A stretch of 64,000 bases of DNA from Candidatus Chisholmbacteria bacterium (GCA_963704905.1 CAVPHZ010000001.1:515438-579437); one strand, 5' to 3'. Shown: positions 15,584-43,839, counted from the first letter of the stretch. The notes: generated by a model not told the origin, from the letters alone. Program-made: numbers and translations.

Positions 15584-15617
15584 TTATTTATGACGTTATG
15601 ATCATTAAACTATTTTC

Positions 15618-16397: not shown

Positions 16398-16404
16398 CGC
16401 GCTT

Positions 16405-17055
16405 CTATCGATTTGGAATTGAGGCTTTACCCCAGAGAATGGGGGCTTTTTCATTTTTTAAGAATTCGTAGATCATGGCTGCTGCTTGGGTTCCTTGAGC
16501 TGCTGCATTCACCACTTGCTCTAGTGAGTCTGGAAATTTTAGACAGTTACCAGCGGTAAAGACTCCTAGTACATTCGTTTCGAGTGTGTTGCGTGAAGCA
16601 ATAAATCCATCGTTTGTTACATCAATGCCTAATGATTTTGCCAGACTGACACCAGAGTAATTTGTTCGCCTTTTTTCGTTGCCAGTTGCAAAGATTAGAG
16701 AAGCTGAGATGAAAGTGTTGTTTTGAGAGGTTTGGAGGGTGAATTTTGATGTTTGATTAGATGACTCTTTTTTAACTCCAGTTACTTTTTCATTGACGAG
16801 CTCTACTCCAGATTTTTTAACTTGTTCTAGTATCCCACTCAACCAATCTTTGCCACTGATTGATTCAACACCCGGATAATCGAAGATCATGGGTGCGAAG
16901 ATAATTTGACCGCCAATGACATCACCAATAATGAGGGTTTTAAGTTTGTAGAGGCCACAAAATAAGCCGGCCGAGAGGCCTGCTGGACCAGCTCCGATGA
17001 TGGCAATATCGTACATAACAAGGACTATTGTACGGAGGATAAAGCTGTTTGACAA
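16405..17055 (-). CDS. thioredoxin-reductase-like FAD-binding protein lacking the NADPH-binding domain and CxxC
   Basis: The N-terminus 'YDIAIIGAGPAGLSAGL' carries GxGxxG. The C-terminus 'GVFTAGNC' matches the TrxR 'GVFAAGDV' position. The protein is only 216 aa and has no CAVC motif. Confidence 0.55.
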   Translation of the reverse strand: MSNSFILRTIVLVMYDIAIIGAGPAGLSAGLFCGLYKLKTLIIGDVIGGQIIFAPMIFDYPGVESISGKDWLSGILEQVKKSGVELVNEKVTGVKKESSNQTSKFTLQTSQNNTFISASLIFATGNEKRRTNYSGVSLAKSLGIDVTNDGFIASRNTLETNVLGVFTAGNCLKFPDSLEQVVNAAAQGTQAAAMIYEFLKNEKAPILWGKASIPNR

Positions 17056-17069
17056 ACAGATTATTACTA

Positions 17070-17085
17070 ATCTAATATATTAGAT
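17070..17085. promoter_or_regulatory. perfect 16-bp palindrome ATCTAATATATTAGAT in divergent promoter region
   Basis: The palindrome is seen directly in the sequence. It sits between the divergently transcribed TrxR-like gene (start 17055, minus strand) and the yerC/trpR-like gene (start 17098). Confidence 0.4.
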
Positions 17086-17097
17086 AATTACACATCT

Positions 17098-17442
17098 ATG
17101 GCGCGTGTGAGTGTGAATAGGCCGCTTTCGGTTGATGATGAGCAAAGGCTTTTTGAGAAGCTGTTTTTAGCGCTGTCTTCTCTGGGAAACTGGCAAGAAG
17201 CCGAGGCTTTTTTGCTTGAGTTTTTGACCAAAGAAGAGTTAGCAATGTTTGCAAAGAGACTTGAGCTCTACAAACGTATATCACAAAAACAGAAGTACAA
17301 AAAGATTACTCGAGATTTGCATGTTACGAGTCAAACCATTAGTGAGGCGAAAAAGAAAATGAAGCGTACAAATGTCTACTTTTTACGGGTGTTGCGGAAG
17401 ATCCAGAGCTTGGATAAGCGTTTCTTCAAATTAGTTGATTGA
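17098..17442 (+). CDS. TrpR-like YerC/YecD family DNA-binding protein
   Basis: The segment 'EELAMFAKRLELYKRISQKQKYKKITRDLHVTSQTISEAKKKMK' matches the YerC/YecD TrpR-like fold pattern. Confidence 0.6.
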   Translation: MARVSVNRPLSVDDEQRLFEKLFLALSSLGNWQEAEAFLLEFLTKEELAMFAKRLELYKRISQKQKYKKITRDLHVTSQTISEAKKKMKRTNVYFLRVLRKIQSLDKRFFKLVD

Positions 17443-18316
17443 CATTGGTAGGAGGATTCTCAACAATACTAGTATGAATGGATGTGGAAAACAGTGTTTG
17501 TGCGTTCAGCCTTCAAAGAGTCGTTGCTTGTCGTACAAAGGTTTACTTGGGGCCTTTGTGGTTGCGGTTTTTATATCGGGGTTGCTTTTGGCTTTAAATA
17601 GTAGTGTCTTTGCTGAAACAACAGACGGGAAAGAGCCTTTCGTCGAAGAGAAAGTAGCAACGGATTCGTACAACGCTGAAGAAGATACCATTACCTCTTT
17701 GCCGCCGCTTCCTAAAGTTGATTGTTACACAACACGAGAGGTTGCTCGTGAAGTGGGAGTTGGTCGTTGTTTGGTTATTTTTGATGGTGGTGTGTATAAC
17801 GTCACCGAAGGCAATAAATGGAGCCCTGAGGGACATGTTGGGCAACATGCTTGTGGTGGGGTGTATATCTCAGATACGATCGAGCAAGGTCCACATCTTG
17901 CTGAAGTCATGAAACAATTTTATGTCGCGCCTATTTGTGGTGAGGAGGAAACGGCGATGGAGGTCTCGCCTATTCGTGGTGAGCGAGAAATTGCGGATGG
18001 AGAGGTTGGGCAATCAGACTCTGAGGTTCTTCGTCGGTGGTCTAAAAGACCTTTTGGTCTCAATGGTTGGCGAGTGTTTTTTGCGTATCTTTCAGGGATT
18101 TTCTTTATCCTTAATTTTGCCACTTGTTATGCCATGCCCTGGGCGCGGCATGGTGCGCCATGGGCTGGAGAAAAACCCGGTGAGGATGATAAAGACCAGA
18201 TTGGACATTTTCCCTTAACCCACTGGCATCCATGGTTTGCATGGGGATCAGTGCTTTTTTTAGGACTTCATGGCATTCTGGGATTTCTCTGCTCCTGGGG
18301 TGTCGCATGCCTCTAG
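17435..18316 (+). CDS. membrane protein with cytochrome b5-like domain and His/Trp-rich C-terminal TM region
   Basis: The segment 'YTTREVAREVGVGRCLVIFDGGVYNVTEG' resembles the cyt-b5 fold start, but there is no HPGG heme-ligand motif. The C-terminus has 'HFPLTHWHPWFAWG'. Confidence 0.4.
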   Translation: MIDIGRRILNNTSMNGCGKQCLCVQPSKSRCLSYKGLLGAFVVAVFISGLLLALNSSVFAETTDGKEPFVEEKVATDSYNAEEDTITSLPPLPKVDCYTTREVAREVGVGRCLVIFDGGVYNVTEGNKWSPEGHVGQHACGGVYISDTIEQGPHLAEVMKQFYVAPICGEEETAMEVSPIRGEREIADGEVGQSDSEVLRRWSKRPFGLNGWRVFFAYLSGIFFILNFATCYAMPWARHGAPWAGEKPGEDDKDQIGHFPLTHWHPWFAWGSVLFLGLHGILGFLCSWGVACL

Positions 18317-25440: not shown

Positions 25441-26744
25441 AATTATTTTGTAATCACGGCTTTGAATGCAAATGCTATTGGGAAATACGCGTCATTAGTG
25501 TTTGGAGAGCATTGAGAGCGTTTTAGATGTGCTTGGAACGTTTGTACTCAGGAAATTATGCTGATTTTTCCTCTTTTATTCTGTTCGATTAGGGCGATAG
25601 GAGACGTGGAGCGAGGATTTGTATCTATTGATCTGGCATCGTCTTGTTATATAGCATTATAAGCTCTTTCTTCACGAGTTATCTTTTATCTTATAGTTAT
25701 TATTCAGCATGATATTAAGTCTAGTAGCTTGGTTTTTAGGAACTATGTTATTGGAGAATATTGTTTATTAGAAATTGTTTGATGACTATGTATATTGGTT
25801 ACCTAAATTAAGAACTACTATGTTCACTTTGCAACTAGTATAAATAATCGAAACTGCTGATATAGATGTTCTTTATAGGATTAGACTAGTAATTTGGATG
25901 AATTTCCAGTCATGTAATAGGGCAGATTTCACTGAATTAGAACATACATGAGTTGAGGGGAGTATGTCGCTTAATCATATAAAGATATATATTATTATAT
26001 TACATACTATTAGATATCAATAAGTAGGACCTAGAGTAATACTTTTCGTCGAGAGATAGATAAATGGCAGAAAATTGTTACATTTGAAAGTTTTACGTGT
26101 GTTTTTTTAATTAAATTTCTCATCATTCATTGAACTGAGCATAGAAGCGGAAAGACATATTTGGGTTTGCTTAGGTACTGCTTGCTCAATGCATAGCTAT
26201 ATCCAGGCGAAGAGGCTGTCTTATCTTATTGGTTGGGATGGATTGTGAGATTGCTGGAAGCTTCATTTTTCTAGCAAACTCATATTTTCTCAAGATAGTG
26301 AAATATTGCCGGATGATTAGGAAATGTAGATTGATTTTCGTTTTATGGCCTTACTTTCTTTCACCTTGGCGAAAAGTCAGGGCTATCATTCTAGGGATGG
26401 ATATCCTGATTGGGAATTCGACTATTTCGTCTGGGCGATATTTCAGGTCAAGTGGAGTGAGCATCTGGTTTGACAACGATGGAACCATGGAATCTTAGCC
26501 CATGGAGCTTCATTTGAGGTTGTGAATTCATTTGCTTTGTTTAACTGCTGTTTTGTTGATTTAGTGTATGTGCTGTTTCCTAAATTTATGATTGGGAGGA
26601 GGGTATTGAGCAAATTATGCCTCCACTTGAGGAAACAGCCTAGTATTCAGCTACCTATGCATTGGTTAGGCTTTGCGTAGGTGACCTCTGGTAAGAGGCT
26701 TGTCAACAATTCGGTGGTGCAATCGATTTGGATGGAGAGTGAAA

Positions 26745-27698
26745 TTAAGCTCGAGTGTAGTAAACTGAGCGGCCTTTTCCATGAGGGAAAAGAAGTCCGA
26801 GGTTGACGAGTTTTCTCAAGTCACGGCTGGCGGTTATTTGGGAGATCTTACAGATTTGTTGAACTTTCCTATTTGTTACTTTTAACTCTGGTTGTTGAAC
26901 AATTCTCATGACTTCTTTCTGACGATCGTTGAGCTCGAAATATCTGGGTGAGGTCTCAGTTTTAAAACTCCGGTCTTTTACTGATTGGACGGCTTTGTTG
27001 AGTTGGACTACAACACCCTTCGTGAAGTACTCGATCCAGAGAGTTAGATTATTTGAGCGTTGTACACTCTCGAGTGCCTGCTGGTAGGAATTCATGTCTT
27101 TTCTCCAATATTCCTCAAGCACTAAGAGGCCTCTAAAGTCATAGCCATGTTTGTAGAGGAAGAGGTGAGCTAGAAGTCTGGCGAGTTTGCCATTTTTCTC
27201 TGAGATGGGTTTGAGGTTTTCGATGAGTGCTTGCGCTGCTGCAGCTTGAATGATGGGGCTTTCTTCACCCGCCTGAAGGTAATCAAGTGAGGCTTTGAGC
27301 GTTCTCTCGGGTGTGAGGAATGTTTTATCTTTGGTGTCCACGGTTGGGAGGATGGCTATTTCGTAGAGTTCCTTTAATGTTGCGGTTGAGATGGTTTTTG
27401 GAGACACGAGCCAGTTCTGGGTGATGTAGTCAAGAGCTCTTTTGTAATTTATAACCTCTTGTTGGTCAGTGGATATCTGTTTTATTTCTCTGGTGAGAGT
27501 GGAAATGGTATCTTTTTTGGAAAGTGGGTGGTTTTCGATCTTTAATGACCAGTAGATACGCTCAATGTTGGCTTCCCACTTAAGGCGTAACTCGGTTTTT
27601 GGAGCCAAGGGGGTAAGGAGGATTTGTCTTTTTAGACTTTCAATTCTCTCAGGCAGAGTTTTGAGATCTTGTGAAAGGTTGTATGAGAGACCTTGCAT
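26745..27698 (-). CDS. Fic-family protein with degenerate Fic motif and C-terminal winged-helix
   Basis: The canonical motif HPFxDGNGRxxR appears here as 'KPISEKNGKLAR', followed by 'LLAHLFLYKHGYDF'. The C-terminus 'QICKISQITASRDLRKLVNLGLL' is wHTH-like. Confidence 0.55.
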   Translation of the reverse strand: MQGLSYNLSQDLKTLPERIESLKRQILLTPLAPKTELRLKWEANIERIYWSLKIENHPLSKKDTISTLTREIKQISTDQQEVINYKRALDYITQNWLVSPKTISTATLKELYEIAILPTVDTKDKTFLTPERTLKASLDYLQAGEESPIIQAAAAQALIENLKPISEKNGKLARLLAHLFLYKHGYDFRGLLVLEEYWRKDMNSYQQALESVQRSNNLTLWIEYFTKGVVVQLNKAVQSVKDRSFKTETSPRYFELNDRQKEVMRIVQQPELKVTNRKVQQICKISQITASRDLRKLVNLGLLFPHGKGRSVYYTRA

Positions 27699-27895: not shown

Positions 27896-30298
27896 ATGAA
27901 AGCTAACCTGCCCAGGAAAAAAAAGCTTATCCCGATCAGTGAAGCTGCTGAGGTGTTGGGAGTTTCAGTTGATACCATCCGACGATGGGATAAGAAAGGA
28001 ACGCTACACGCGGAAAGACCGAATGGAAAGACGCGGTATTTTTCGCTGGAGGAAATTGAAAACATCAAGTTTTCCAAACCCCTCTCGATCTCTGAGGCAT
28101 CGAAACAATTGGGACTTTCTGCATCTACACTCAGGCGACTTGAGGAAAGAGAGGTACTCAAGCCTGACAGAAATGACGCGGGTGAGCGTCAATATACAAA
28201 GAAAACTCTGGAAGAATTTCTTCATTCAGAGTATTTCCTAAGAAAAAAAGCTGTTGAAGAGAAGATTCTTGAACCGTTTAAAACGGTTGATCATAAAGAT
28301 GATGATGTCCTTTTTTCAGATGCGCCCAAATCACAGGCTGAACCGAACCATAAGACGCTAAGCATCGAAATTGAAGAACAGAGGAGAAGATTACACCATC
28401 TCACCAAGTTTCAACGATCACTCTGGTCCTCTTTACTGTTTCTGACTACAACTTTCATTCTCCTGGTTACCATTATCACCGTGGCATTTTTAATGTATCC
28501 GGAGGAAACTGCTCTGTTTTTTGGCTACAGAAGTCAAGTTGACCGGCCGATGATTGCGGGTGAGACTGATGATGTACAAGTGCTAGGTGCGACATACCCT
28601 GCTGATGCACCTCTTGAACGAGGTACTCTTGTTGGTCGAGCATTGAAACCGTTTAGCCGAGTGTCTTTGGCGGTTGTGAAACGAATTGATGAAGATACCT
28701 ATGAGGAGATTATTCCTGACCGACGTATTCCAGATGTGAATGATGTGTTTACGATTGATGAAGAAGGATATTTAACCAACTACTTCACATTTCGTCCTCC
28801 AGATAGTTCGTTTCTGGCAATTCCTGATAAAGAGCTGATTGAGAACCTAAACTCAGACTATATTCGAGGAAGAGTTCCAGGTGGTGAGGTGGGTAACTTG
28901 GTTTACTTTGGGGAAGATGGTGTGATTGATGGACTGAGTGTGGGGAGTGAGCAGTTAAGAGCTGGGTCGGTGATTGGTGGAGTGGGAGGAGTGATACTTG
29001 ATTCTTCGATTAGCGCTTTTGACTTAGCGGATGGATCGGTGACAACTCCAAAGTTAGCAGAAGAGGCAGTGACCGAGGCAAAAATATCTGGAAAATCGGT
29101 GAGTGAGGGTAAACTAGCCGATGGGGCGGTTACCAGTGACAAGATTGCAGATGACACTATTACTTCTAAGGACCTGGCTCAGGCTATTGTTCTTGGAGAC
29201 GGGGATTTTCTTGACTTAGGGTCGATTGTCCATAATGACAGAGGGATGCAGGGGTTGAGGTTACCAAATGTACCAACGTCAACACCTGAGGCTCCTGAGA
29301 GTGGAGAGGGTTATATCATCTATAGCACCGCAGGTGATGAGGTCATGGTGTTTTCGAATGGTGCATGGAGTTCGGTTGGGGGTGGGGATATTACGGGTGT
29401 TACAGTTGGGAATGGAATGACTGGTGGCGGATTGGTTGGAGATCTTACCGTTAATTTAGATGTAACAACATCTGGGACTACGTTGACGAACTCTGCAAAC
29501 TCTGGGTTAGAGTTGGCTGCTGATGGTTTGAGCATGCTTCGAGGGTGTGCAGATAACGAGATTCTCAAATGGGATTCTGGATCTGGAGTTTGGCAATGTG
29601 AAGGTGATGTGAGCGGAGCTGGGGCAGTGCAAGTTGAAGAGGGAGATAGTTCTGTGGTGGGTTCGCTTACTAACTTGGATTTTCTGGCTGCTGATTTTAT
29701 TGTTTCCCAATCTCCTGTTGGAGAGGGAAACGTTTCAATAGACTATGCGAATAGCAGCATCACGCGTTCGAGTCAAGCAGAAGCGATCACTGGAGGGTGG
29801 ACATTTAACACACTAGGAACGACATTTGCGACGAGCATTGCTGCCAATGGAGGGATTACGTTTGATCAGACAACTGACACGATTGGAGCCCACACTGCGG
29901 CTGGCACTTATGATATGAACACTAACCTAATCACCAACATTGGCAATGCTGGGACTGACTTTGTTAGTGGTGGAGGACTGACTTTGGCTGGAACCCTAAC
30001 CGCCAATGGACAGGTAACCCTAGGAGATGATGGAGATACGGTGGCCATTGATTCATCAGACTGGAACATTGATGCCACCGGAGCAATTACCGGAATCTCC
30101 TTGGATGCTAATGGCACAGGGAACTCCTTGAGCAATATTGAAAATGCTGATTTAGCTAGTGACACTTTAGATTGGGATAAGTTTGCAAATGCTATGACTG
30201 TCGATGAAGCCACGACCCTGGCATCAACTATTGATTTAACTACTTTTGACCTTAATCATTCACCAGTCGGAACTGCCGCTTCACCCCATCAGTTTTGA
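27896..30298 (+). CDS. giant surface repeat protein, segment 1: two excisionase/MerR-type HTH domains, TM helix, extracellular repeats
   Basis: The HTH domains are 'IPISEAAEVLGVSVDTIRRWDKKGTL' and 'SISEASKQLGLSASTLRRLEEREVL'. The TM helix is 'LLFLTTTFILLVTIITVAFLMY'. The frame is lost at about 30290 by a 1-nt insertion relative to the paralogous copy. Confidence 0.6.
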   Translation: MKANLPRKKKLIPISEAAEVLGVSVDTIRRWDKKGTLHAERPNGKTRYFSLEEIENIKFSKPLSISEASKQLGLSASTLRRLEEREVLKPDRNDAGERQYTKKTLEEFLHSEYFLRKKAVEEKILEPFKTVDHKDDDVLFSDAPKSQAEPNHKTLSIEIEEQRRRLHHLTKFQRSLWSSLLFLTTTFILLVTIITVAFLMYPEETALFFGYRSQVDRPMIAGETDDVQVLGATYPADAPLERGTLVGRALKPFSRVSLAVVKRIDEDTYEEIIPDRRIPDVNDVFTIDEEGYLTNYFTFRPPDSSFLAIPDKELIENLNSDYIRGRVPGGEVGNLVYFGEDGVIDGLSVGSEQLRAGSVIGGVGGVILDSSISAFDLADGSVTTPKLAEEAVTEAKISGKSVSEGKLADGAVTSDKIADDTITSKDLAQAIVLGDGDFLDLGSIVHNDRGMQGLRLPNVPTSTPEAPESGEGYIIYSTAGDEVMVFSNGAWSSVGGGDITGVTVGNGMTGGGLVGDLTVNLDVTTSGTTLTNSANSGLELAADGLSMLRGCADNEILKWDSGSGVWQCEGDVSGAGAVQVEEGDSSVVGSLTNLDFLAADFIVSQSPVGEGNVSIDYANSSITRSSQAEAITGGWTFNTLGTTFATSIAANGGITFDQTTDTIGAHTAAGTYDMNTNLITNIGNAGTDFVSGGGLTLAGTLTANGQVTLGDDGDTVAIDSSDWNIDATGAITGISLDANGTGNSLSNIENADLASDTLDWDKFANAMTVDEATTLASTIDLTTFDLNHSPVGTAASPHQF

Positions 30299-31958
30299 AT
30301 TGACCCCAACTTGGGGAATCGATGCTACCGATCAGACTTTGATTGGCCTGAATATCAACCCGAATACCAATGGAAATACGGATAGTGGTGATGTTCTTGA
30401 GGCAATAAGCATTACCAATATCACTGGGACTGTTGGAACGGAGACAGCAATTGATATTGGAACGGGGTGGGATTCAGGATTGTCGATAGGTGGGACAGTT
30501 GTCATTGATGGGTCTGGCAATGTGGCTGCTAGCCAATTGTCAGGGACGCTAATTACTGTAGCTGGGGATTCTGGCTCACAAGCTGTAAGTCAGGGAAATA
30601 CTTTTACAATTGTGGGTGGGACAAACTTATCGACTACTGGTGCGGCTGGACCACAGGTACAAGTTGATTTGAACAACTCTATTACTCTTTCAGGAGATCT
30701 CACAGTCCAGGGACAGAATGTGAATTTTGACAATGCAACTGATATTGATATCGATGATAATCTGACTGATTCTTTAACGATTTCTGTTGGCGCGGATAAC
30801 TATTTAGATATTGATTCTAATAATGGGACTGAAGGGGTGAGTTTTGGGAATGCGGTTACCAATCCGAGTTTCAGCTTCTTAGGATCGGGTGAGGCTGCGT
30901 TTACTGGGAATGTGAATGCCAACTCTGGAGTAGATGTTACGGGTGCAGACCTGACTGTTGGGGGAGCGAATTTCTCTGTAGCATTTGGCAACGGCAACAT
31001 CACCACTGCAGGAACCTTAGCCGTCAACGGAGACCAAATCACCAGTGACGGGAACCTGGTCATCAATGCCACCAGTACGGATATCCAAGATCCGTTAACG
31101 GCTGATTCGCTTACCTTAGACACGGGAGCCTTGGCCATCAACAATGCCGGAGGGATCACCAGTAACCAAGCCACCCTGATTGTCAATGCCGGCGGGAACG
31201 TTGATGTCCAAGATGCTCTGAATGCTGACAGTATCACTTCTGATGCGGGAGTCTCGATCGCCGCCGGCAATGCCTACACCGGAGCGGGAGCGGTGACCCT
31301 GAGTTCAGGAGCAGGAGCTTTAACCCTGGATGCCAACAATGGAAATGTGACCCTCAATACCGATGATGATCTCTTCCCAACCCTGGGAGCAGGAGATGCT
31401 GACCTAGGAGCCAGCGGCACCCGCTGGGACAACCTGTTTGCTGTAGCAGGTAACTTTTCAGGGAATGTGGATGTAGCCAGTGGTGTTGATATTACTGGTG
31501 CTAATCTGACTGTGGGAGCCACCAACTTCGTGGTGACGGTAGGATCCGGAAACGTGGACACCCAAGGCACCATCCAAGCCGGTTCAGGAAACATCACTCT
31601 TACTGATGCGACGGGAAACATCCAAGCCGGAGCGTATGCCCTGGCCTCCATTGACGGAGATGACCTGAACAGCAACCTGGCTGGGAATGGTCTCACCCTT
31701 ACGGCTGGTTCTCCTGATGTTCTCAACATTGCCCTGGATAGTGCTGCTGCTGATGGAAGTACCACTTCCTCCATCTCCGGTCTTGAATTTGACTCAGGAG
31801 AACTGACCCTGATCCGCGGCTGTGGAGCCAACCAGATCCTGAAATGGGACAACATCAACTTTGAGTGGGATTGTGCGGACGACGATGATACGGGAGGAAC
31901 GGTATCTTTAGACTCTGCTTACAACCAACGGAGGGTCCATCACCGTAGATGCCTATGA
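30246..31958 (+). CDS. giant surface repeat protein, segment 2 (frameshift-interrupted continuation)
   Basis: 'FELTPTWGIDATDQTLIGLNINPNTNGNTD' continues the repeat architecture seen intact at 35090. The segment ends at a second 1-nt insertion near 31935. Confidence 0.5.
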   Translation: MTLIIHQSELPLHPISFELTPTWGIDATDQTLIGLNINPNTNGNTDSGDVLEAISITNITGTVGTETAIDIGTGWDSGLSIGGTVVIDGSGNVAASQLSGTLITVAGDSGSQAVSQGNTFTIVGGTNLSTTGAAGPQVQVDLNNSITLSGDLTVQGQNVNFDNATDIDIDDNLTDSLTISVGADNYLDIDSNNGTEGVSFGNAVTNPSFSFLGSGEAAFTGNVNANSGVDVTGADLTVGGANFSVAFGNGNITTAGTLAVNGDQITSDGNLVINATSTDIQDPLTADSLTLDTGALAINNAGGITSNQATLIVNAGGNVDVQDALNADSITSDAGVSIAAGNAYTGAGAVTLSSGAGALTLDANNGNVTLNTDDDLFPTLGAGDADLGASGTRWDNLFAVAGNFSGNVDVASGVDITGANLTVGATNFVVTVGSGNVDTQGTIQAGSGNITLTDATGNIQAGAYALASIDGDDLNSNLAGNGLTLTAGSPDVLNIALDSAAADGSTTSSISGLEFDSGELTLIRGCGANQILKWDNINFEWDCADDDDTGGTVSLDSAYNQRRVHHRRCL

Positions 31959-33700
31959 TGTGCTGTTCACCCTAGCTGATGCCACCAATGACTACGGATT
32001 GGTCATTGATAACAATACCGCCGGGGACATTGCTACCGCCCTGGAATTCACCACCACGGGTGTGGGAGGCACCTTTGCCACCGCCATTGATACCTACTGA
32101 CGGGGGAATCACCACCGGGATCAACCTGGGTACGAGTGATATCGTGGGAACCACTGCCGACATCAACCTGACCAACTTTGATGTCACCGGGTCCAACGGC
32201 AACATCACCACCGCAGGAACCTTGGCCGTCAACGGAGACCAAATCACCAGTGACGGGAACCTGGTCATCAATGCCACCAGTACGGATATCCAAGATCCGT
32301 TAACGGCTGATTCGCTTACCTTAGACACGGGAGCCTTGGCCATCAACAATGCCGGAGGGATCACCAGTAACCAAGCCACCCTGATTGTCAATGCCGGCGG
32401 GAACGTTGATGTCCAAGATGCTCTGAATGCTGACAGTATCACTTCTGATGCGGGAGTCTCGATCGCCGCCGGCAATGCCTACACCGGAGCGGGAGCGGTG
32501 ACCCTGAGTTCAGGAGCAGGAGCTTTAACCCTGGATGCCAACAATGGAAATGTGACCCTCAATACCGATGATGATCTCATCCCAACCCTGGGAGCAGGAG
32601 ATGCTGACCTAGGAGCCAGCGGCACCCGCTGGGACAACCTGTTTGCTGTAGCAGGTAACTTTTCAGGGAATGTGGATGTAGCCAGTGGTGTTGATATTAC
32701 TGGTGCTAATCTGACTGTGGGAGCCACCAACTTCGTGGTGACGGTAGGATCCGGAAACGTGGACACCCAAGGCACCATCCAAGCCGGTTCAGGAAACATC
32801 ACTCTTACTGATGCGACGGGAAACATCCAAGCCGGAGCGTATGCCCTGGCCTCCATTGACGGAGATGACCTGAACAGCAACCTGGCTGGGAATGGTCTCA
32901 CCCTTACGGCTGCTTCTCCTGATGTTCTCAACATTGCCCTGGATAGTGCTGCTGCTGATGGAAGTGTGGGACCGACGGTTCCTCCATCGTCCGGTCTTGA
33001 ATTTGACTCAGGAGAACTGACCCTGATCCGCGGCTGTGGAGCCAACCAGATCCTCAAATGGGACAACGTGAACTTTGAATGGGATTGTGCGGACGACGAC
33101 GATGCCGGACTCTCCACGGAATCTTTAGATACTGCTTATGACCAAGGTGGTTCCATTACCGTGGATGCGTATGATGTGCTGTTCACCCTAGCTGATGCCA
33201 CCAATGACTACGGCCTGGTCATCGATAACAATACCGCAGGTGACATTGCCACCGCCCTGGAATTCACCACCACGGGTGTGGGAGGCACCTTTGCCACCGC
33301 CATTGATACCTCTGACGGGGGAATCACCACCGGGATCAACCTGGGTACGAGTGATATCGTGGGAACCACTGCCGACATCAACCTGACCAACTTTGATGTC
33401 ACCGGGTCCAACGGCAACATCACCACTGCAGGAACCTTAGCCGTCAACGGAGACCAAATCACCAGTGACGGGAACCTGGTCATCAATGCCACCAGTACGG
33501 ATATCCAAGATCCGTTAACGGCTGATTCGCTTACCTTAGACACGGGAGCCTTGGCCATCAACAATGCCGGAGGGATCACCAGCAACCAAGCCACCCTGAT
33601 TGTCAATGCCGGCGGGAACGTTGATGTCCAAGATGCTCTGAATGCTGACAGTATCACTTCTGATGCGGGAGTCTCGATCGCCGCCGGGAACGCCTACACC
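30991..33700. repeat. about 1.21-kb near-identical tandem direct repeat, about 2.2 copies (30991-32195, 32196-33410, 33411-~33700)
   Basis: Direct comparison of the three intervals shows near-identical sequence with a period of about 1205-1215 bp. The first copy starts at 'caacggcaacatcacc'. Confidence 0.85.
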
Positions 33701-36313
33701 GGAGCGGGAGCTGTTACCCTGTCCTCCGCGGCAGGTACTGCTTTAACCATTAACTCGGGTACTACTGGAACTTTGGCAATTGGAGATGATGGGAGCGCTG
33801 AAACTATTAATCTTGGAACTGGAGCTGCTGCTAAGACTCTAGTTTTGGGATCGACGAACACAACAAGCTCAACAGCTATTCGGTCTGGATCAGGAGGAGT
33901 GAATATCAATGCCAGTATTAATCAACCGATGAATATCGGGACTGGTACTTCGACAGGACTGGTTACCATTGGTGGGAGTGCCGCACAAACGATTTCGATT
34001 GCCAATGGAGCGGCAGCAAAGACTCTTAATTTGGGAAGCTCGAATACAACCTCCACAACGACTCTTCTCTCTGGGTCAGGTGGTATTAACTTGAATGCGA
34101 GCAATAACCAACCCGTGAATGTTGCAACCGGTACTTCTGCTGGACTTGTGACTATTGGTGGTAGTGCAGCGCAGTCAATTGCAATAGGAAACGGTGCAGC
34201 TGCCAAGACAGTTACCTTGGGATCGACCAACACCACCAGTACTACGACCATTCAATCGGGAACGGGGAATGTGAATTTCAGCGCAGGAAGTACTGGAGAT
34301 TTTCTTTTCAACGTTGATGATGACAGCACGCTTATTTTAACCGGTTCTGTGACCAATACTGGTTCATTGCAAGATATTAACTTAACCCTTGGTAATGACG
34401 CTGGAGCCGATACGGTAGCAGGTCTTCAGATTGACGTTACCAGTGTGGATACGGGAGCAGACTCTGATGTCCTTTTGGGTCTTAATATCGGGAACCTTAC
34501 GGGAGGGAATGCCAATGTTACGGAGCGTGCTTTACAGATTGGAACCGGATGGGACATGGGTATTGATGTACAAAGTGGGGGGATTACGATTTCTTCTGGG
34601 GCTTTGGCAATTAACAATGCAAGTGGAATTACTTCAAACCAAGCAACCTTAATCATTAACGCTTCCGGAACTGTGGATGTGCAAGACGCCCTGAACGCTG
34701 ACTCGATCACCTCAGATGCTGGAGTCTCGATTGCGGCTGGGAATTCATACACCGGAGCCGGGGCCGTGACCTTCTCAAGCGGTGGTGGGGCTGGACTTAC
34801 AATCGATTCAGCCAATGGAACTATAACCATTCAAACTGATGATGATCTCATACCCACACTTGGGGCCGGAGATGCCGATATCGGGGCATCCGGAACCCGC
34901 TGGGATAACATTTATGCATTGAACTCGAATTTCTCGGGAACAGTTACTGCAAATGACTTTAGCTGTACTGACTGTTTGGATTTTGCCGAACTTGTTAATG
35001 GCATGACGGTGGATGAAGCTACTACAATGGCATCGACTTTGGCGGCTACGACGCTGGACCTTAATGTTTCTCCGGCTGGAACCGCTGCGAGTCCAGTGGC
35101 TTTTGAGATCACTCCAACTTGGGGTATTGATGCAACAGACCAGACGTTGTATGGATTACAGATTAACCCGAACACGAACGGGAATACCGATGCAGGAGAC
35201 GTGCTTGGGGCAATGTTTATTGGGAATATTACCGGAACTGCCGGAACGGAAAGAGCGATTACCATTGGAACCGGATGGGATACGGGACTTGAGATTAATA
35301 GCGGAGGTATCAATGTGGTTGCTGGAGGAATTACGATAGCTTCTGGGGCATTGGCAGTGAACTCCGATTCGATCACATCTGATGGAGCGACTCTGACGAT
35401 CAATGCCGCTGGAACCGTGGATGTTGATGATGTATTGAACGCCAATTCCATTACTTCGGATGCTGGTGTCTCGATAGCCGCCGGGAATGCTTACACCGGA
35501 GCTGGGGCGGTAACGGTATCGTCTGGAGGTGGGGCGACAATAACAATAGACTCAGCAAACGGAAGCGTAACCTTCCAGACAGACGATGATCTTATTCCAA
35601 CGCTTGGAGCTGGGGATGCTGATCTCGGTTCTTCAGGACTGCGATGGGATAACGTTTTTGCAACTGTTGGGAATTACGCAAGTACTTTAAATGCCGATGG
35701 AACCGTTACGATTGGGACCGGCGGGAATACCTTTACCTTTGATCCCTCGAGTGGACCGACGTATGCCGGGACGGCGAGGATCAGTAAAACTATGACACTG
35801 CATGCTGAGTACGCAGGTGCGACACTTTCTGATTATTATGGCGCTGGAACGGACTCAAATACTTCAGGGACGATGATTGCAGATGTTGAGCCGAATGCAA
35901 CTGACCTGCAACGGACGTACTACGAATGGGAGCGCGGTGCTGCTACACAACATTTCCAGACGGTTGCGGTTCGGGTGACGCTTCCGCAGGATTTTGCTGC
36001 ATGGCAGACAAGTAATGCCATGGTTGTTGATTTTGAAACCGAGAATACGACGAGTACAAACAGCGATGTGGATGTGCGAGTGTACCTGGAAAGTGATGCG
36101 ACAACTGCAGTTGCAACGAGTGCTGATAACGCCTCTTCGGTCGCGAATACTTGGGAGACGGTTACGATTGATGATAGCGTTCTTGATGATGGTGGTGCTC
36201 CTGAGTGGGATGCGGCTGGGGAAACGGTGGTTATATACTTGCGGATGGGATCGCAGAGTGGAAACCATGTGCGAGTTGGGGATATCACTTTAAATTACCT
36301 AGCCCAGTTTTAA
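31979..36313 (+). CDS. giant surface repeat protein, segments 3 and 4 (continuation; the true frame resumes at about 32101 after the stop at 32098..32100, and a short 31960..32100 piece is in a third frame)
   Basis: It holds near-identical repeats of the segment-2 sequence and shares modules with the 51805 gene, such as NADSITSDAGVSIAAGNAYTGAGAVT. The first 40 codons of the listed ORF are out of the repeat frame. Confidence 0.55.
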   Translation: MPPMTTDWSLITIPPGTLLPPWNSPPRVWEAPLPPPLIPTDGGITTGINLGTSDIVGTTADINLTNFDVTGSNGNITTAGTLAVNGDQITSDGNLVINATSTDIQDPLTADSLTLDTGALAINNAGGITSNQATLIVNAGGNVDVQDALNADSITSDAGVSIAAGNAYTGAGAVTLSSGAGALTLDANNGNVTLNTDDDLIPTLGAGDADLGASGTRWDNLFAVAGNFSGNVDVASGVDITGANLTVGATNFVVTVGSGNVDTQGTIQAGSGNITLTDATGNIQAGAYALASIDGDDLNSNLAGNGLTLTAASPDVLNIALDSAAADGSVGPTVPPSSGLEFDSGELTLIRGCGANQILKWDNVNFEWDCADDDDAGLSTESLDTAYDQGGSITVDAYDVLFTLADATNDYGLVIDNNTAGDIATALEFTTTGVGGTFATAIDTSDGGITTGINLGTSDIVGTTADINLTNFDVTGSNGNITTAGTLAVNGDQITSDGNLVINATSTDIQDPLTADSLTLDTGALAINNAGGITSNQATLIVNAGGNVDVQDALNADSITSDAGVSIAAGNAYTGAGAVTLSSAAGTALTINSGTTGTLAIGDDGSAETINLGTGAAAKTLVLGSTNTTSSTAIRSGSGGVNINASINQPMNIGTGTSTGLVTIGGSAAQTISIANGAAAKTLNLGSSNTTSTTTLLSGSGGINLNASNNQPVNVATGTSAGLVTIGGSAAQSIAIGNGAAAKTVTLGSTNTTSTTTIQSGTGNVNFSAGSTGDFLFNVDDDSTLILTGSVTNTGSLQDINLTLGNDAGADTVAGLQIDVTSVDTGADSDVLLGLNIGNLTGGNANVTERALQIGTGWDMGIDVQSGGITISSGALAINNASGITSNQATLIINASGTVDVQDALNADSITSDAGVSIAAGNSYTGAGAVTFSSGGGAGLTIDSANGTITIQTDDDLIPTLGAGDADIGASGTRWDNIYALNSNFSGTVTANDFSCTDCLDFAELVNGMTVDEATTMASTLAATTLDLNVSPAGTAASPVAFEITPTWGIDATDQTLYGLQINPNTNGNTDAGDVLGAMFIGNITGTAGTERAITIGTGWDTGLEINSGGINVVAGGITIASGALAVNSDSITSDGATLTINAAGTVDVDDVLNANSITSDAGVSIAAGNAYTGAGAVTVSSGGGATITIDSANGSVTFQTDDDLIPTLGAGDADLGSSGLRWDNVFATVGNYASTLNADGTVTIGTGGNTFTFDPSSGPTYAGTARISKTMTLHAEYAGATLSDYYGAGTDSNTSGTMIADVEPNATDLQRTYYEWERGAATQHFQTVAVRVTLPQDFAAWQTSNAMVVDFETENTTSTNSDVDVRVYLESDATTAVATSADNASSVANTWETVTIDDSVLDDGGAPEWDAAGETVVIYLRMGSQSGNHVRVGDITLNYLAQF

Positions 36314-36320
36314 AAGGAGA

Positions 36321-38015
36321 ATGAAGTATAAAGTATGGTGTATGAAATTACGACGAAGAATTATTGTCAAGGCGTTCGCTGTACTTCTTCTACTGCTTCT
36401 TCAAATTTATAGTTGGCTCTCTCCTAGTTATTTTCAAATACCTCAAGCGTATGCGGCAGATATGGCACGGTTAGAGTGGGGGGTAGAAACAGGTGTGACT
36501 ACGAGTTGGACAACGGTGAATCTGTCAAATACATTTTCAAGTCCAATTGTATCGGCCACAGCTCTCTATAGCTACACGTTAGGAGGAACTGGTGATGAAT
36601 GTTCGATAGAAGCGGAAGTACAATCTGTTACTTCTACAAGCTTTCAAGTTCGGATGGGGGTACCGCCGCACAGCTCTGCAAGCAGTTGTACAGCTGATCC
36701 AAGTTCGATTGAAGTGCACTGGTTAGTTGCTGAAAATACCGGAACTACAACCGATACGACTTTACCAGGCACAAGTATTCAAGTTCAAGCGGGGAGTTTT
36801 AGCACAACGAATTTGGATGGGGCTGGTGATTGGACTGATACCACAGGGAATGTGACGATCTATCCTACATTTAGCGCACCGATTACCCTTTCTCAACGAG
36901 TTTCCTGGAATGCTACCAATTGGGCGACGGCTGCAAGCTTTCGGACTGGGAACCGCGCAGATTACTTACGAGCAGGTGATGGCACAGTTCATGTTAGTTT
37001 TATGGATGGTGGGATGTCTGCTTCAAGTATGACCAGCTCTGATACTCTGCATTATATAATCCATGATGGGAATGAAAATGGAACGGTTAGCGGGGATTAC
37101 GGTTCTTATGTCCAATCACTACTCTCGTCGGATTCAATCCTGGGTTTACAAAATAGTGCAAGCGGTTATTCTATGGGGACATTGAGTGGTTTTTCTTCTG
37201 CACCAGCAATTGCTTTGGCTGATAGTATTGAAGAGGATGGAGGGGATGGTCACTGGTGGGTAACAAAGAGTTTGTCGACTACTGATTGGTTGGGATGGGC
37301 AATTGAAGATCAGGAAAGTGACAATGAGCGGAGCCATACAACAGAAGTTGAAGGTGGGATTGTGTTTGAAACTTCCGGTGCTTATCCCGAAGCTACCTTT
37401 ACCCAAAACCGCTACCGCTGGTACGTCGATAATGATTCTACCAATCCTGTCGGTGCATGGGGAAACCCTGACCTGGCAGAGAATACGGCGATTACGATTA
37501 CTCCCAGTGGCAACGATCCACCCAATGAGACACAAGAACTGCGGCTGCGGGTGAATCTAACTGTTAATACTGGCGGTATGCCGGTTGGCATGCAGCAATT
37601 CACCCTGCAATACAAAGAAGGAACAGATGGAAGCTGTACGACGGGGAGCTGGACGGATGTGGGAGCAGCAGCCACCTGGGAGTATGCGACCAGTAGTGTT
37701 ACTGACGGAGCTGATATCACGGGAGTGCTCACCGGAACTGATAGAGATCAAGAATATGCAAAGAGTGAACCGACTCAAATCAATCACAATCTTGGGAGAG
37801 TGAATGAAGACATTGAGTATGACTTTCATATCATTGGCACTAACATTTCCAGTGCTACTCAATATAGTTTCCGACTTATTGAAGCCGATGATACTGTTTT
37901 AGATGGCTATACCAATTGTCCTACATTGACCACTGAACCGGGACCAACAGACCTCATGCGGCATGGTCGATATTATGCTGATGAGGTGAAGGGAGGGTTT
38001 TTCTGGGCGAAATAG
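36321..38015 (+). CDS. secreted protein of unknown function (paralog family)
   Basis: It has an N-terminal signal/TM segment. An RBS 'AAGGAG' sits upstream. A paralog lies immediately downstream. Confidence 0.6.
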   Translation: MKYKVWCMKLRRRIIVKAFAVLLLLLLQIYSWLSPSYFQIPQAYAADMARLEWGVETGVTTSWTTVNLSNTFSSPIVSATALYSYTLGGTGDECSIEAEVQSVTSTSFQVRMGVPPHSSASSCTADPSSIEVHWLVAENTGTTTDTTLPGTSIQVQAGSFSTTNLDGAGDWTDTTGNVTIYPTFSAPITLSQRVSWNATNWATAASFRTGNRADYLRAGDGTVHVSFMDGGMSASSMTSSDTLHYIIHDGNENGTVSGDYGSYVQSLLSSDSILGLQNSASGYSMGTLSGFSSAPAIALADSIEEDGGDGHWWVTKSLSTTDWLGWAIEDQESDNERSHTTEVEGGIVFETSGAYPEATFTQNRYRWYVDNDSTNPVGAWGNPDLAENTAITITPSGNDPPNETQELRLRVNLTVNTGGMPVGMQQFTLQYKEGTDGSCTTGSWTDVGAAATWEYATSSVTDGADITGVLTGTDRDQEYAKSEPTQINHNLGRVNEDIEYDFHIIGTNISSATQYSFRLIEADDTVLDGYTNCPTLTTEPGPTDLMRHGRYYADEVKGGFFWAK

Positions 38016-38043
38016 CTAACGAAGCTGGCTAGAATACAGATTT

Positions 38044-39716
38044 ATGATGAGAAGACAACGGAAATATACTGCAATAATTCTTACTTTGTCTTTGGCTCAT
38101 GTAACCATAAGGCTGGGAGGGTGGTTGCCGATTTCTCAAGTATATGCAGTTGACATGGCGCGGTTGGAGTGGGGATACTGAGACTGGGGTGGGGACAAGC
38201 TGGACGACGGTGAATCTGGCGAATACGTTTACGGCGCCAATTGTGGTGGCTTCGGCTTTATACAACTACACTGATAATTCCATTACCGGTGAGTGTTCAA
38301 TAGAGGCAGAAGTACAGTCAGTAACCACGACGAGCTTTCAAGTACGAATGGGAATTCCGCCACATGATGCGGCTGGCGGTTGTACTTCTGACCCAAGCTC
38401 GATAGATGTGCACTGGATGGTTGCGGAAGACACAGGGACGAGTACGGACATTACTTTACCGGGGACCAATATACTGGTTCAAGCCGGGAGCTTTACTGAT
38501 ACCGATGTCGATAATGCAACCAGTTGGACGTTGGATGGGAATGTGACGTTTTATCCCACATGGGGAAGCAACCCAAATGTTTTAGCTCGACGGGTAACAT
38601 GGAACGATTCTACCAATTGGGCAACCGCATGGGCGTGTCAGACTAACAGCCGTACAAATCCTCCTACCACTGCACAATCGAATGTCCATGTTCATTTTCA
38701 GCAGCTAGAGATTGCGCCGGCATCTGATTTTTCGTCCGCAGAGACGATGCACTATGTACTCTATGAATCGGGGGAGTCTGGAACGATCAGCGGTGATTAT
38801 GGATCGTATGTTGAAGCGATTCGATCCGGTGACGCTGTCTTAGGCCTCACAGACAGCGTTAATGGATACAGCATGGGAGGGTTGACCGGGTTTAGCGCTG
38901 CTCCTGAAACTGCTGTTGGTTTTCAACTTGAGATGGATGGCGGTAATGGAGGGTGGTGGATTTCAAAGAGCGTTTCCCAGACAGATATCATGGCATGGTC
39001 GCTTGAAGATCAGGATGGTGATAATGAACGGACTCATATCAATGAGACAACCGGAGCTGTGGCGTTTGAAACAGAGGGTTCTTATCCCGAAGCTACTTTC
39101 ACCCAGAACCGCTACCGGTGGTACGTCGATAATGATTCTACCAATCCCGTCGGATGCATGGGGAAACCCTGACCTGGCAGAGAATACGGCGATTACGATT
39201 ACTCCCAGTGGCAACGATCCACCCAATGAGACACAAGAACTGCGGCTGCGGGTGAATCTAACTGTTAATACTGGCGGGATGCCGGTTGGCATGCAGCAAT
39301 TCACCCTGCAATACAAAGAAGGAACAGATGGAAGCTGTACGACGGGGAGCTGGACGGATGTGGGAGCAGCAGCCACCTGGGAGTATGCGACCAGTAGTGT
39401 TACTGACGGAGCTGATATCACGGGAGTGCTCACCGGAACTGATAGAGATCAGGAATATGCAAAGAGTGAACCGACTCAAATCAATCACAATCTTGGGAGA
39501 GTGAATGAAGACATTGAGTATGACTTTCATATCATTGGCACTAACATTTCCAGTGCTACTCAATATAGTTTCCGACTTATTGAAGCCGATGATACTGTTT
39601 TAGATGGCTATACCAATTGTCCTACATTGACCACTGAACCGGGACCAACAGACCTCATGCGGCATGGTCGATATTATGCTGATGAGGTGAAGGGAGGGTT
39701 TTTCTGGGCGAAATAG
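38044..39716 (+). pseudogene. frameshifted paralog of 36321..38015
   Basis: A signal-peptide frame 'MMRRQRKY..VDMARLEWGY' ends in a stop at about 38179. The body continues in ORF 38144..39172. A second shift near 39155 follows. The 3' portion, 39086-39716, is about 99% identical to 37385-38015. Confidence 0.6.
39086..39716. repeat. about 0.6-kb near-identical duplicate of 37385..38015
   Basis: Direct comparison shows one substitution and one 1-nt indel over about 560 bp. Confidence 0.8.
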
Positions 39717-41635: not shown

Positions 41636-42390
41636 GTCAGTTCAGATTGTACCAATTAGAGCAAATTGTTTATGAATCTAATATATGTTCATTGTTTTAC
41701 ATTTACGTATACTTTGTTTATATATTTAAGCTTAGTATCCTATTTGTTATACCTGGTGTTAAGGATTCGTCGGCGAGAAAGAGAGTCGTATCAAGGATGA
41801 TATGGATCTCCTCTATTTTTACTCAAGTAGCTTGGGGAAGTAAGCGCATTTACTTCTTACACTAACTGTTATAGATGAGATGTTAACCACATTTCCAGGG
41901 TGAAGGTGTAAAGTTTTGGTCATTTTTCCAGATGAGGAGGTCGCGAATGGTGGATTAAACTCATTTTTCGCATGAAGGATGGGAATAGCTTCATTGAACG
42001 TGCTATTCAGCTTGTTACTTTTGGAGCACTTTTGCTTTTATGGGCGCTGATTTTTCAAGTTGATATATGTCGCACATTTATTGCGGAATTTTATCTATTT
42101 GGCGCTCAATTGGGCATATGTTAATCACATGCATAGGTTTGGGATCGGTTGCTAAGGTCACAGGAAAATATCAGAGAGTATTTATTAGTGCTTAAGTTTA
42201 ATCTTCAAAGGGCAAGGCAGTGAAGCGGTGATGATTAGTGCTTGAAGTTGAGGAACATGATGGTTTATACTATCCGAAAAGAGGAAAGAGTGTTTACGTG
42301 TAAAGTTTACACTCGGCGTTCTCGATATCATGCAGTACTATATCAAAGCAGATTAAAAATGCATAGTATTTAAAAAAAAAGAAAATTGAG

Positions 42391-43839
42391 ATGACAGAAA
42401 CAGCTAAGATTCGCAAAGCTTTCATTGAGTTTTACAACAAGGTTGGTGATGTATCCTTGGTATGTAAGACGTTTGGAATCAGTCGTCCCACCTTTTACAA
42501 GTGGTATAAACGGTATGATCCACTTAATCCTCAATCATTGGAAGATCAACCTAAGACACCTAAAACGAGGAGAAAAACTACTCTATCTCCAGAGAAAGAG
42601 AAGAGAATTCGTGAGTTACGGATGAAACACATGGATATGGGCAAAGATCGGTTGAAGATGCTCTATCAAAGCCTTTATGCGGAACCGATTTCAACCCACC
42701 ATGTTCAATTTGTGATTCAAAAGTACAAACTCTATCCTCAGCAGTCGGTATCGTCTTTTGATAGTGAGGGAGATGAAAGCAGTAAAGTCGAACCATCTTG
42801 GATGAAAGACGTTTCCCCTCTGGATTATTCTGGATACTCAGCACCAAGTAAGCCGTTTGAGCTTATTGGATCTGGCGTTGCGGTTCGGCCAAGAACCCCT
42901 CCAAGGAGAAGAGAACCTGAGTCGAGAGGATATCGAGTGAATCCATTGCTCTATGCAATTCGATCGCTGCTTCAGCAATGGCAACTTGTACGAGATAGTG
43001 TGGATCATCGAACTCGAGTAAAGCAGATGCGTCCAGGTAGAACTATGAAAGAGAAGAAGGCGACGTATCCAGCTTATGGAACCTCTGCATATGCTGCTCA
43101 AGCACTTGGCTATGGACCCCAGCCACAGTCTGATTTTGGAAGGAAGGCGTTTATTGTCGTTGCAGTGAGTTTTGTGATTTTTGTATCTATCGCACCAGCC
43201 TACTTTTTCTATCGACGATATGAAGACACTCAAGAGAAGATCAGCAATCCGACGCTGGCAGCTCGACAAGATACTGAGGACATGATTACAAAGGTGGCTG
43301 AATATGTCGAGCTTCCAGAGGATGAGGAGCCAAGTATCGTGACCGTTTCTGACAGGGATAAGCTCAGAGGTCATCCTTTTTTCTCCAAGGCAAAGAATGG
43401 AGATAAGGTGCTTATCTACAGCAAAGCGAAGAAGGCTGTGCTCTATGACCCGGTTGAGCAGAAAATTGTCAATGTTGCCCTGATTACCAGCGACACGCCG
43501 ACGGTTAGCTCCAGCCTGGGAATTGAGTCTGCTACTCGAGTAGCAATCTATAACGGTACTGCGGTATCTGGTTTAACCAAGATCGTAGAGAACACACTTA
43601 AAGAGAAGGTTTCTGGAGTTGATGTGGTCCTTCGTGATAATGCTAATCAGGCAGATTATGTCCAGACAATCGTAGTTGATCTGACTGGTGGAAAAAAGCG
43701 AGTACTTGCCGAGAGCATTGCAACTACGCTCAATGGCATCGTTGGTAGCCTTCCTGAGGCAGAAGATCGTCCTGTGACATCTGGAGCTGGTGGAGGTGTT
43801 GAGATTCTGGCGATTGTTGGGAACAGCTATTTGGAGTAG
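42391..43839 (+). CDS. HTH (transposase-N-terminal-like) / TM / LytR_C-like domain protein
   Basis: The N-terminus 'CKTFGISRPTFYKWYKRY' is an HTH. There is a TM helix at about residue 255. The C-terminus 'VAIYNGTAVSGLTKIVENTLKEKVSGVDVVLRDNANQ' is LytR_C-like. No DDE catalytic domain is present. Confidence 0.5.
   Translation: MTETAKIRKAFIEFYNKVGDVSLVCKTFGISRPTFYKWYKRYDPLNPQSLEDQPKTPKTRRKTTLSPEKEKRIRELRMKHMDMGKDRLKMLYQSLYAEPISTHHVQFVIQKYKLYPQQSVSSFDSEGDESSKVEPSWMKDVSPLDYSGYSAPSKPFELIGSGVAVRPRTPPRRREPESRGYRVNPLLYAIRSLLQQWQLVRDSVDHRTRVKQMRPGRTMKEKKATYPAYGTSAYAAQALGYGPQPQSDFGRKAFIVVAVSFVIFVSIAPAYFFYRRYEDTQEKISNPTLAARQDTEDMITKVAEYVELPEDEEPSIVTVSDRDKLRGHPFFSKAKNGDKVLIYSKAKKAVLYDPVEQKIVNVALITSDTPTVSSSLGIESATRVAIYNGTAVSGLTKIVENTLKEKVSGVDVVLRDNANQADYVQTIVVDLTGGKKRVLAESIATTLNGIVGSLPEAEDRPVTSGAGGGVEILAIVGNSYLE

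Follow-up and report, generated by a model that had tools for sequence, protein, structure and literature searches.

The window, a 64,000-nucleotide (nt) stretch of DNA from a Candidatus Chisholmbacteria bacterium (GCA_963704905.1 CAVPHZ010000001.1:515438-579437), contains a giant fibre-type gene, two smaller genes downstream of it that are paralogous to each other, and a second giant gene at its right end (Table 1). The first giant gene carries a tandem array of 1.2-kb blocks, and it is the origin of this array that concerns us here. The blocks are nearly identical over most of their length and differ strongly in one short patch, and the gene that holds them is split by three single-base frame breaks.

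Table 1. Features of the giant gene and of the surrounding window (positions counted from the first nucleotide of the window)
Feature	Position	Strand	Remarks
Giant fibre-type gene	27896-36313	+	Three open reading frames as sequenced; one 2,804-amino-acid frame after removal of 3 bases
Two tandem MerR/excisionase-type helix-turn-helix domains	27932-28219 (aa 13-59, ~60-108)	+	Predicted cytoplasmic
Single transmembrane helix	28418-28510 (aa 175-205)	+	Preceded by K/R-rich sequence
Decapeptide-periodic, tail-fibre-like repeats	28937-29191 (aa 348-432)	+	PHROG matches
Frame break 1	30284-30287	+	CCCC run where paralogous sequence implies CCC; +1
Repeat copy 1	30989-32193	+	1205 nt; 401 codons once corrected
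Divergent patch	copy 1 31761-32034 (274 nt); copy 2 32966-33250 (285 nt)	+	Two variable loops and Cys-pair motif
Frame break 2	31929	+	Copy 1 reads CAA[C]GGA, with a C too many, and copy 2 CAAGGT; non-homopolymer
Frame break 3	32096	+	Copy 1 reads CCT[A]CTGAC, with an A too many, and copy 2 CCTCTGAC; tract otherwise identical
Repeat copy 2	32194-33408	+	1215 nt; 405 codons, reading frame open
Partial copy 3	33409-33720	+	A-core alone (104 codons), then different module SSAAGTALTINSGTTG...; from three-way comparison
Older diverged A-core and RWDN module	34598-34917	+	70-73% nt identity to tandem copies
Second diverged A-core copy	35386-35628	+	~69-74% nt identity
Downstream paralogue 1	36321-38015	+	564 aa, signal-peptide-like N-terminus
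Downstream paralogue 2	38144-39716	+	Split by extra A at 39154 (+1; CGG[A]TGC)
Divergent upstream gene	26745-27698	-	317 aa; weak Fic/SoFic-like and C-terminal winged-helix-turn-helix matches
Third protein with helix-turn-helix and transmembrane helix	42391-43839		IS481-like HTH_32, single transmembrane helix (aa 247-275), LytR_C extracytoplasmic domain
Second giant gene	51805-64000, runs past window end		N-terminal Phage_int_SAM_1 (E 2.6e-10), one transmembrane helix (aa 139-174)

Comparison of the window with itself bears out a tandem direct repeat of 2.25 copies of the block, at the place proposed in an earlier note on this DNA, whose boundaries lie 2 nt off. The self-alignment of the repeat extends over 1557 nt at 96% identity, which excludes chance similarity. 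The note had described the copies as almost base-for-base identical, and this proves too strong: copies 1 and 2 are equal at 1173 of 1217 aligned columns (96.4%), the differences being clustered in the divergent patch, and about 920 of the 1205 nt of the unit are 99.5-100% identical between them. Copy 3 differs from copy 1 at 3 positions in 300 nt (33409-33708; ~99% identity), and its similarity fades between 33712 and 33748. The older copies elsewhere in the gene had been put at about 75% identity, close to the 69-73% measured. Tandem Repeats Finder reported no repeat in the window, the period exceeding its 500-nt limit. The G+C content of 30989-33708 is 54.7%, as against 44.2% for the window and 41.3% for its left 27 kb, probably reflecting the Gly/Ala/Thr/Asp-rich composition of the repeat region.

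Every unit opens with the same 104 codons, NGNITTAGTLAVNGDQ...AYTGAGAVTLSS, here called the A-core, which is present five times in the giant protein and whose central motif, DVQDALNADSITSDAGVSIAAGN.YTGAGAVTLSS, is almost invariant in homologues from other organisms. Modules within the protein were compared by BLASTP with fragments of 120 amino acids (aa). The B segment consists of an RWDN "neck", a beta-rich stretch, a Cys-pair motif and a linker, the C segment is a different module (TINSGTTG...), and the order in the array is A-B-A-B-A-C. Both types of junction, A to B (RWDN) and A to C (TINSGTTG), are kept in homologues, the latter in P0050, P0053 and P0055, indicating the partial copy 3 to be an A-core that natively precedes C. 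In the three-way comparison each A-core has private synonymous single-nucleotide polymorphisms (SNPs).

The divergence between copies 1 and 2 is sharply partitioned. On the 5′ side (30989-31760, ~770 nt) there are 4 substitutions, and at the mean rate a stretch of 770 nt would have 4 differences or fewer with a probability of 1.6e-8; the adjoining 31761-32034 contains 26 substitutions together with 9-nt and 3-nt in-frame indels; and in the ~150 nt 3′ of 32034 the single difference is the extra A at 32096. Synonymous divergence (dS) is 0.010 for codons 1-256, 0.433 for codons 257-350 and 0 for codons 351-401. Because synonymous sites are identical too, the near-identity of the flanks reflects recent common ancestry of the DNA and not constraint on the protein, and the 40-fold contrast in dS inside one unit corresponds not to rate variation but to differing coalescence times, that is, to a recombination mosaic. 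The loops of the patch read STTSSIS and TGGTVSLDS in one variant and SVGPTVPPSS and AGLSTESLDT in the other. The ratio of nonsynonymous divergence (dN) to dS in the patch (codons 257-350) is 0.16, and all 11 differences from copy 2 in 31929-32096 are synonymous in the corrected frame (dS 0.53, dN 0), so the two B segments, B1 and B2, are distinct evolved sequences and not read noise.

The earlier note had offered very recent expansion or gene conversion as the source of the near-identity. The recent DNA ancestry holds (dS 0.01 and 0), but a single expansion does not agree with a patch at dS 0.43, and gene conversion fits better. The simplest account would be an older duplication with flanks repeatedly homogenised by gene conversion, in which the ~280-nt patch either escaped conversion or was imported, keeping its old divergence; the patch may resist conversion through its indels, or may stay different because it codes for variable loops. 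Conversion seems to be active at this locus, as the adjacent pair of downstream paralogues shows the same mosaic. Their 5′ halves are ~70% identical and their last 598 nt (37419-38016 in paralogue 1, ending at the stop codon) are ~99.5% identical, with 3 substitutions and 1 inserted base, a combination that indicates conversion between old paralogues and not recent duplication. The pair has no family match, and paralogue 2 is without the signal-peptide-like N-terminus of paralogue 1.

Alternatively, a single very recent duplication could have been followed by replacement of the ~280-nt patch from a diverged allele, from another strain or locus, with no long-term concerted evolution. The essentially identical patch flanks would be expected of this, and the patch spans the most variable loops, plausibly exchanged under diversifying pressure; we nonetheless consider it unlikely, as no donor of either variant is present elsewhere in the 64-kb window, the neighbouring paralogues already require conversion between old duplicates at the locus, and the many repeats of 85-95% aa identity in homologues, of intermediate age, fit long-lived arrays.

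The repeats had also been taken to lie inside one giant gene, which is not how the sequence reads. The region consists of three consecutive open reading frames (ORFs) on the same strand, at 27896-30298 (800 aa), 30246-31958 (570 aa) and 31979-36313 (1444 aa), and the single uninterrupted giant ORF seen in homologues, for example that of 2,581 aa in L025, is absent. Deletion of three single bases yields a stop-free frame of 2,804 codons that includes the sequence ...AYNQGGSITVDAYDVLF.... Beyond break 1, three-frame translation gives the continuation SPISFELTPTWGIDATDQT, which resembles the paralogous module from aa 2384. Readthrough of the TGA at 30296 under alternative code 25 (UGA = Gly) was rejected, as it yields a sequence unlike that module. 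Breaks 2 and 3 are both inside copy 1, and both extra bases are absent from copy 2; the 11 synonymous differences between them indicate that the frame was intact until very recently, or is still intact with the extra bases being errors. The deposited gene calls contain the 800-aa and 570-aa products, and the breaks therefore belong to the deposited sequence.

Three further +1 breaks are present in neighbouring fibre-type genes, at 39154 (extra A), ~62734-62751 and ~63293-63310. All six breaks in the window are net +1 and confined to fibre-type genes, and the gene map shows no comparable break in ~35 ordinary genes. Each of the four with an exact position is an insertion of one base, in one case in a homopolymer, and no motif common to the breaks was found. 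That the breaks keep to repeat-rich surface genes and all go in one direction speaks for a systematic fault of the consensus, and reads of paralogous or strain-variant modules may have been mixed during polishing. As to the breaks alone, artefact is slightly the better supposition than real recent inactivation. Whichever their origin, the gene stayed a single open frame through its evolution until practically now.

A broader form of this explanation would make the array itself an assembly artefact, either with a wrong copy number or with two strain alleles of one A-B-A locus stitched in tandem, the breaks then being consensus errors. Tracts of perfect identity of ~330-350 nt, and 99.5% identity over 770 nt, exceed short-read resolution; the breaks occur solely in repeat-rich fibre-type genes while the ~35 ordinary genes are clean; contigs of the family end early downstream, the 10-kb flank being complete in 6 of 24 loci as against 13 of 24 upstream; and a related contig (L091, below) is frame-fragmented too. 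An extra loop in the assembly would, however, make the B segments identical, and B1 and B2 differ by dS 0.43 at dN/dS 0.16 with in-frame indels; the copy-specific synonymous SNPs in each A-core gave the assembler copy-resolving information. Elsewhere the window is cleanly assembled, also over 11 kb of the second giant gene, where repeats are 65-80% identical, the source is a single 772,908-bp contig, and three of the four precisely located insertions are outside homopolymers, which is atypical of platform errors. We regard an artefactual array as improbable. The collapse or mis-join raised in the earlier note is possible in the form of a strain chimera or a wrong copy number; a simple extra loop does not agree with the differing B segments, and the strongest hint of assembly trouble is the three single-base insertions, which the note had missed. 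A crude assembly loop as the origin of the array was ruled out by the distinct, selection-shaped B1 and B2 and the private A-core SNPs.

If instead the frameshifts are real, the cluster may be freshly dead, with the fibre genes being pseudogenes and the repeats neutral remnants that play no role in length variation. This is possible, if doubtful, and somewhat easier to entertain than an artefactual array. The first giant gene has three breaks, the second giant gene two and downstream paralogue 2 one, the public gene calls split the first giant gene into separate products, paralogue 2 lacks the signal-peptide-like N-terminus of paralogue 1, and the non-homopolymer insertions are atypical of platform errors, that at 32096 lying in a tract identical between the copies. 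Yet the corrected 2,804-codon frame is free of stops, the out-of-frame stretch differs only synonymously so that any inactivation must be extremely recent, and homologues are intact on good assemblies. That all six breaks are net +1 is also not expected of independent natural indels (two-sided P ~0.03), and systematic error would explain it.

Programmed +1 ribosomal frameshifting at the breaks is highly improbable, as is a diversity-generating retroelement behind the mosaic. Site 1 (TCA CCC_C AT) does permit a +1 slip of tRNA-Pro giving the expected downstream peptide, but CAA[C]GGA, CCT[A]CTG and CGG[A]TGC have no common slippery motif and the paralogous copies are simply without the base; frameshifting was rejected because the slippery motif is not shared among the sites. 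The retroelement was rejected in turn because the substitutions between copies are of all types and not adenine-specific, and no reverse-transcriptase domain was found among the 30 window proteins scanned with Pfam.

We conclude that the array is probably a genuine tandem duplication of a super-module, kept near-identical by recombination between A-cores. Pairs of A-cores would recombine homologously by a RecA-type process, with unequal crossing-over and gene conversion creating and homogenising the copies, and A-B-A-B-A-C is the order that would be expected if crossing-over were unequal between the A-cores on either side of B. Where direct repeats are of kilobase length, RecA-dependent recombination is expected to lead to both gain and loss of units. 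The same machinery may here add or remove 1.2-kb units, the ectodomain changing by ~400 aa per step. The repeat, the uneven dS, the limits of the modules and the layout of the protein are read from the sequence itself, and the recombination mechanism, the instability of copy number and the role as a surface fibre are what we infer from it.

Several points weigh against this conclusion. The copy number is taken from one assembled sequence, and with ~690-nt identical tracts beyond the span of short reads the assembled array may have too many or too few units. The three +1 insertions in the gene (two of them in copy 1) and three in its neighbours speak of assembly trouble or of dead genes. The patch could come from another strain's allele and not from an old in-situ duplicate. 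Finally, the fold of the repeat unit is without a match in Pfam, PHROG, NCBIfam, PDB or Foldseek, and the putative fibre label derives from context.

That context is the architecture of the corrected protein. The two helix-turn-helix (HTH) domains match Pfam MerR_1 (E 1.8e-21, two stretches), MerR and HTH_17, and the NCBIfam excisionase family TIGR01764. The transmembrane (TM) helix at aa 175-205 is the sole hydropathy peak across 2,804 aa, and its K/R residues on the N-terminal side would imply an N-in, C-out topology. An AlphaFold2 model of the N-terminal 440 aa has a mean predicted local distance difference test score (pLDDT) of 56, with the two winged-HTH units at 64-78 and a long helix containing the TM segment (residues 150-208) at 78-91. 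A juxtamembrane region separates the TM helix from the decapeptide repeats, which match phrog_892 (E 1.3e-11) and phrog_28766 (E 6.8e-11) and also many proteins bearing DUF5907/Peptidase_S74. With relatives that carry Peptidase_S74 and Phage_fiber_2 domains, the TM helix and decapeptide repeats make a surface fibre plausible.

The ectodomain totals ~2,600 aa of predicted extracellular repeats, and ~2,300 aa of G/A/T/D/N-rich modules are without a match in Pfam, NCBIfam, PHROGs or PDB. Neither the second nor the third ORF matches Pfam or NCBIfam; for the third, which holds copy 2, a PDB sequence search gave no match and PHROGs one weak match of unknown function (E 8e-4) outside the repeat unit. 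The unit comprises several sub-modules in its 401 or 405 aa. Its AlphaFold2 model, from a 20-sequence alignment, has a pLDDT of 57, and Foldseek found nothing meaningful for it in PDB; so poor a model would be expected if the unit needs to oligomerise.

The N-terminal 340-520 aa are 40-48% identical to those of giant proteins of 1,400-4,200 aa (P0001-P0014), with 38 invariant columns, and the conserved region corresponds to the two HTH domains, the TM helix, the juxtamembrane region and the decapeptide repeats. Hosts of this family include WWE3, Woesebacteria, Daviesbacteria, Levyibacteriota, Andersenbacteria and Saccharibacteria, among many metagenome-assembled genomes (MAGs) of Patescibacteria; many of the MAG records at loci L011-L057 are labelled "uncultured Gammaproteobacteria", the family otherwise being in Patescibacteria. 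Named members are annotated solely as "MerR family DNA-binding transcriptional regulator", and we found no description of this MerR-HTH/TM giant protein family in the literature. Some relatives carry Peptidase_S74, Phage_fiber_2, SH3 or laminin-G domains, and the distal repeat part is hypervariable among them. The contigs at L011-L057 often end within a few kb on the downstream side of the conserved N-terminal domain, which points to short-read assemblies breaking in the repeat-rich distal parts.

Module amplification is a family trait. Several homologues contain internal tandem repeats with 85-99% aa identity and periods of 230-660 aa. In one (L025; OZ246414.1, a 915-kb chromosome-level MAG) the gene is intact (2,581 aa, ORF 10001-17746) and has a direct repeat of 327 nt, perfect and spaced by 543 nt (13856-14725), which is an independent case in the family of internal duplication or conversion at a very recent date. 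A related giant-gene fragment (L091; ENA ERZ25039597 contig_15231, 1-4415) contains repeats of 82-92% DNA identity with a period of ~1.56 kb, changes frame twice (3>1>3) and is called as three genes. The internal repeat in the window is the most recent seen in the family, most of the unit being 99.5-100% identical in nt.

The repeat unit has 173 detectable relatives among 1.84 billion representative proteins. An exact 51-nt repeat pattern had 0 matches in contigs of species-representative genomes, and the source proteins cluster as singletons at 90% identity. A metagenome scan with the unit returned only distant relatives, of at most 64% identity; none had DNA repeats of at least 85%, which is uninformative since short-read contigs would break there. 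The nearest AtpD relative is 83% identical (P0067), the named matches of the F-ATP synthase beta subunit being to Patescibacteria/Gottesmanbacteria, and these housekeeping neighbours, with GDH and Lgt, indicate that the locus is on the chromosome of a deep-branching Patescibacteria lineage.

Surface-protein repeats homogenised by recombination are well known, and the window repeat is a new example and not a new principle. The nearest known concept in function is that of the Periscope proteins (SasG/Aap, Rib/alpha C and others), together with M-protein size variation by intragenic recombination. In Periscope proteins the stalk repeats are highly identical in DNA, and homologous recombination has been proposed for their change in length; the class is defined as monomeric rods, and its repeats are not resolvable in short-read assemblies (PMC9704523). 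Tandem repeats of very high DNA identity are common to Periscope and M-protein size variation and are found here as well. The Periscope unit is a single domain of 70-130 aa, whereas the unit in the window is a 1.2-kb, 401/405-aa block of several modules, in just 2.25 copies. The window protein has an N-terminal TM helix and cytoplasmic HTH domains where Periscope proteins have LPXTG or a type I secretion system, and it is possibly a trimeric fibre. Periscope length varies between strains; the window array is known from one sequence of an uncultivated, ultra-small Candidate Phyla Radiation (CPR) bacterium.

Phage tail fibres resemble the protein in the PHROG matches of aa 348-432, in the Peptidase_S74/Phage_fiber_2 domains of its relatives, in the G/A/T/D/N-rich, beta-solenoid-like periodicity, and in having conserved cores beside interchangeable modules. 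Unlike tail fibres, it is membrane-anchored with HTH domains and no S74 chaperone domain, its repeat unit and the rest of its ectodomain match no phage family, and it is encoded in a chromosomal housekeeping setting (histidine kinase, GDH, ATP synthase) and not in a phage structural module. Within the Patescibacteria MerR-HTH/TM family it conforms in having two HTH domains, a single TM helix and the juxtamembrane region, and differs by its three-way +1 split. ToxR/CadC-type regulators likewise have their DNA-binding domain at the N-terminus, in the cytoplasm, followed by one TM helix and an extracytoplasmic C-terminus, a likeness of layout only; the DNA-binding domain here is MerR/excisionase-type and duplicated, and the ectodomain is ~2,600 aa of fibre-like repeats. 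Giant genes of Omnitrophota, predatory bacteria of ultra-small size, encode many TM regions, SecA-DEAD domains and more than 30,000 aa (bioRxiv 10.1101/2023.11.21.568195). They are likewise very large, mostly extracellular, poorly annotated, found in small genomes, suspected of a role in attachment and obscured by assembly fragmentation, but the window protein has just one TM helix, starts with HTH domains and is 2,804 aa long.

In this example concerted evolution seems to work on blocks of 1.2 kb that comprise several modules and have a conserved core at their bounds, and it suggests that such block conversion is a route by which the hypervariable distal parts of these giant CPR proteins get reshuffled. 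Until there are long reads, neither the copy number nor the reading frame that public records give for this locus should be relied on. More unusual than the array are the six +1 breaks restricted to these genes and the family itself, unstudied and Patescibacteria-wide, in which a cytoplasmic DNA-binding domain is predicted to be joined to a giant extracellular fibre. Its members are plausible candidates for host attachment in episymbiotic Patescibacteria.

The second giant gene contains a huge repeat region with a module family common to the first. It comprises a 3,654-aa ORF, two +1 breaks and then a 4,889-aa product (P0186) starting at 63381, and with the breaks corrected would encode ~8,750 aa, in a 773-kb genome. 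Quite speculatively, and with little probability, both giant proteins might form a new class of contact sensor, in which a fibre is coupled by one TM helix to a DNA-binding domain (a MerR HTH pair in the first, an integrase SAM-like domain in the second). The binding of a host cell would in that case be passed directly to the chromosome, as transcription control or nucleoid tethering, and recombination that adds or removes super-modules of 400 aa would adjust how far the sensor reaches or its specificity, the bacterium being an episymbiont of the CPR.

Genes near the first giant gene encode a histidine kinase, a Fic-like protein, GDH, a DsbA-like protein, Lgt and F-ATP synthase, and no phage genes are among these neighbours. 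The 64-kb window has no tRNA genes and no Rfam families at gathering threshold, and contains gaps of 400-790 nt without an ORF of at least 80 aa at 25441-26228, 41866-42390 and 51043-51804. The 317-aa product of the divergent upstream gene scores E ~1e-3 in Pfam and 7e-11 against NCBIfam SoFic, below the cut-off of that family. With the protein encoded at 42391-43839, three proteins of the window combine a cytoplasmic domain of DNA-binding type, one TM helix and an outside domain.

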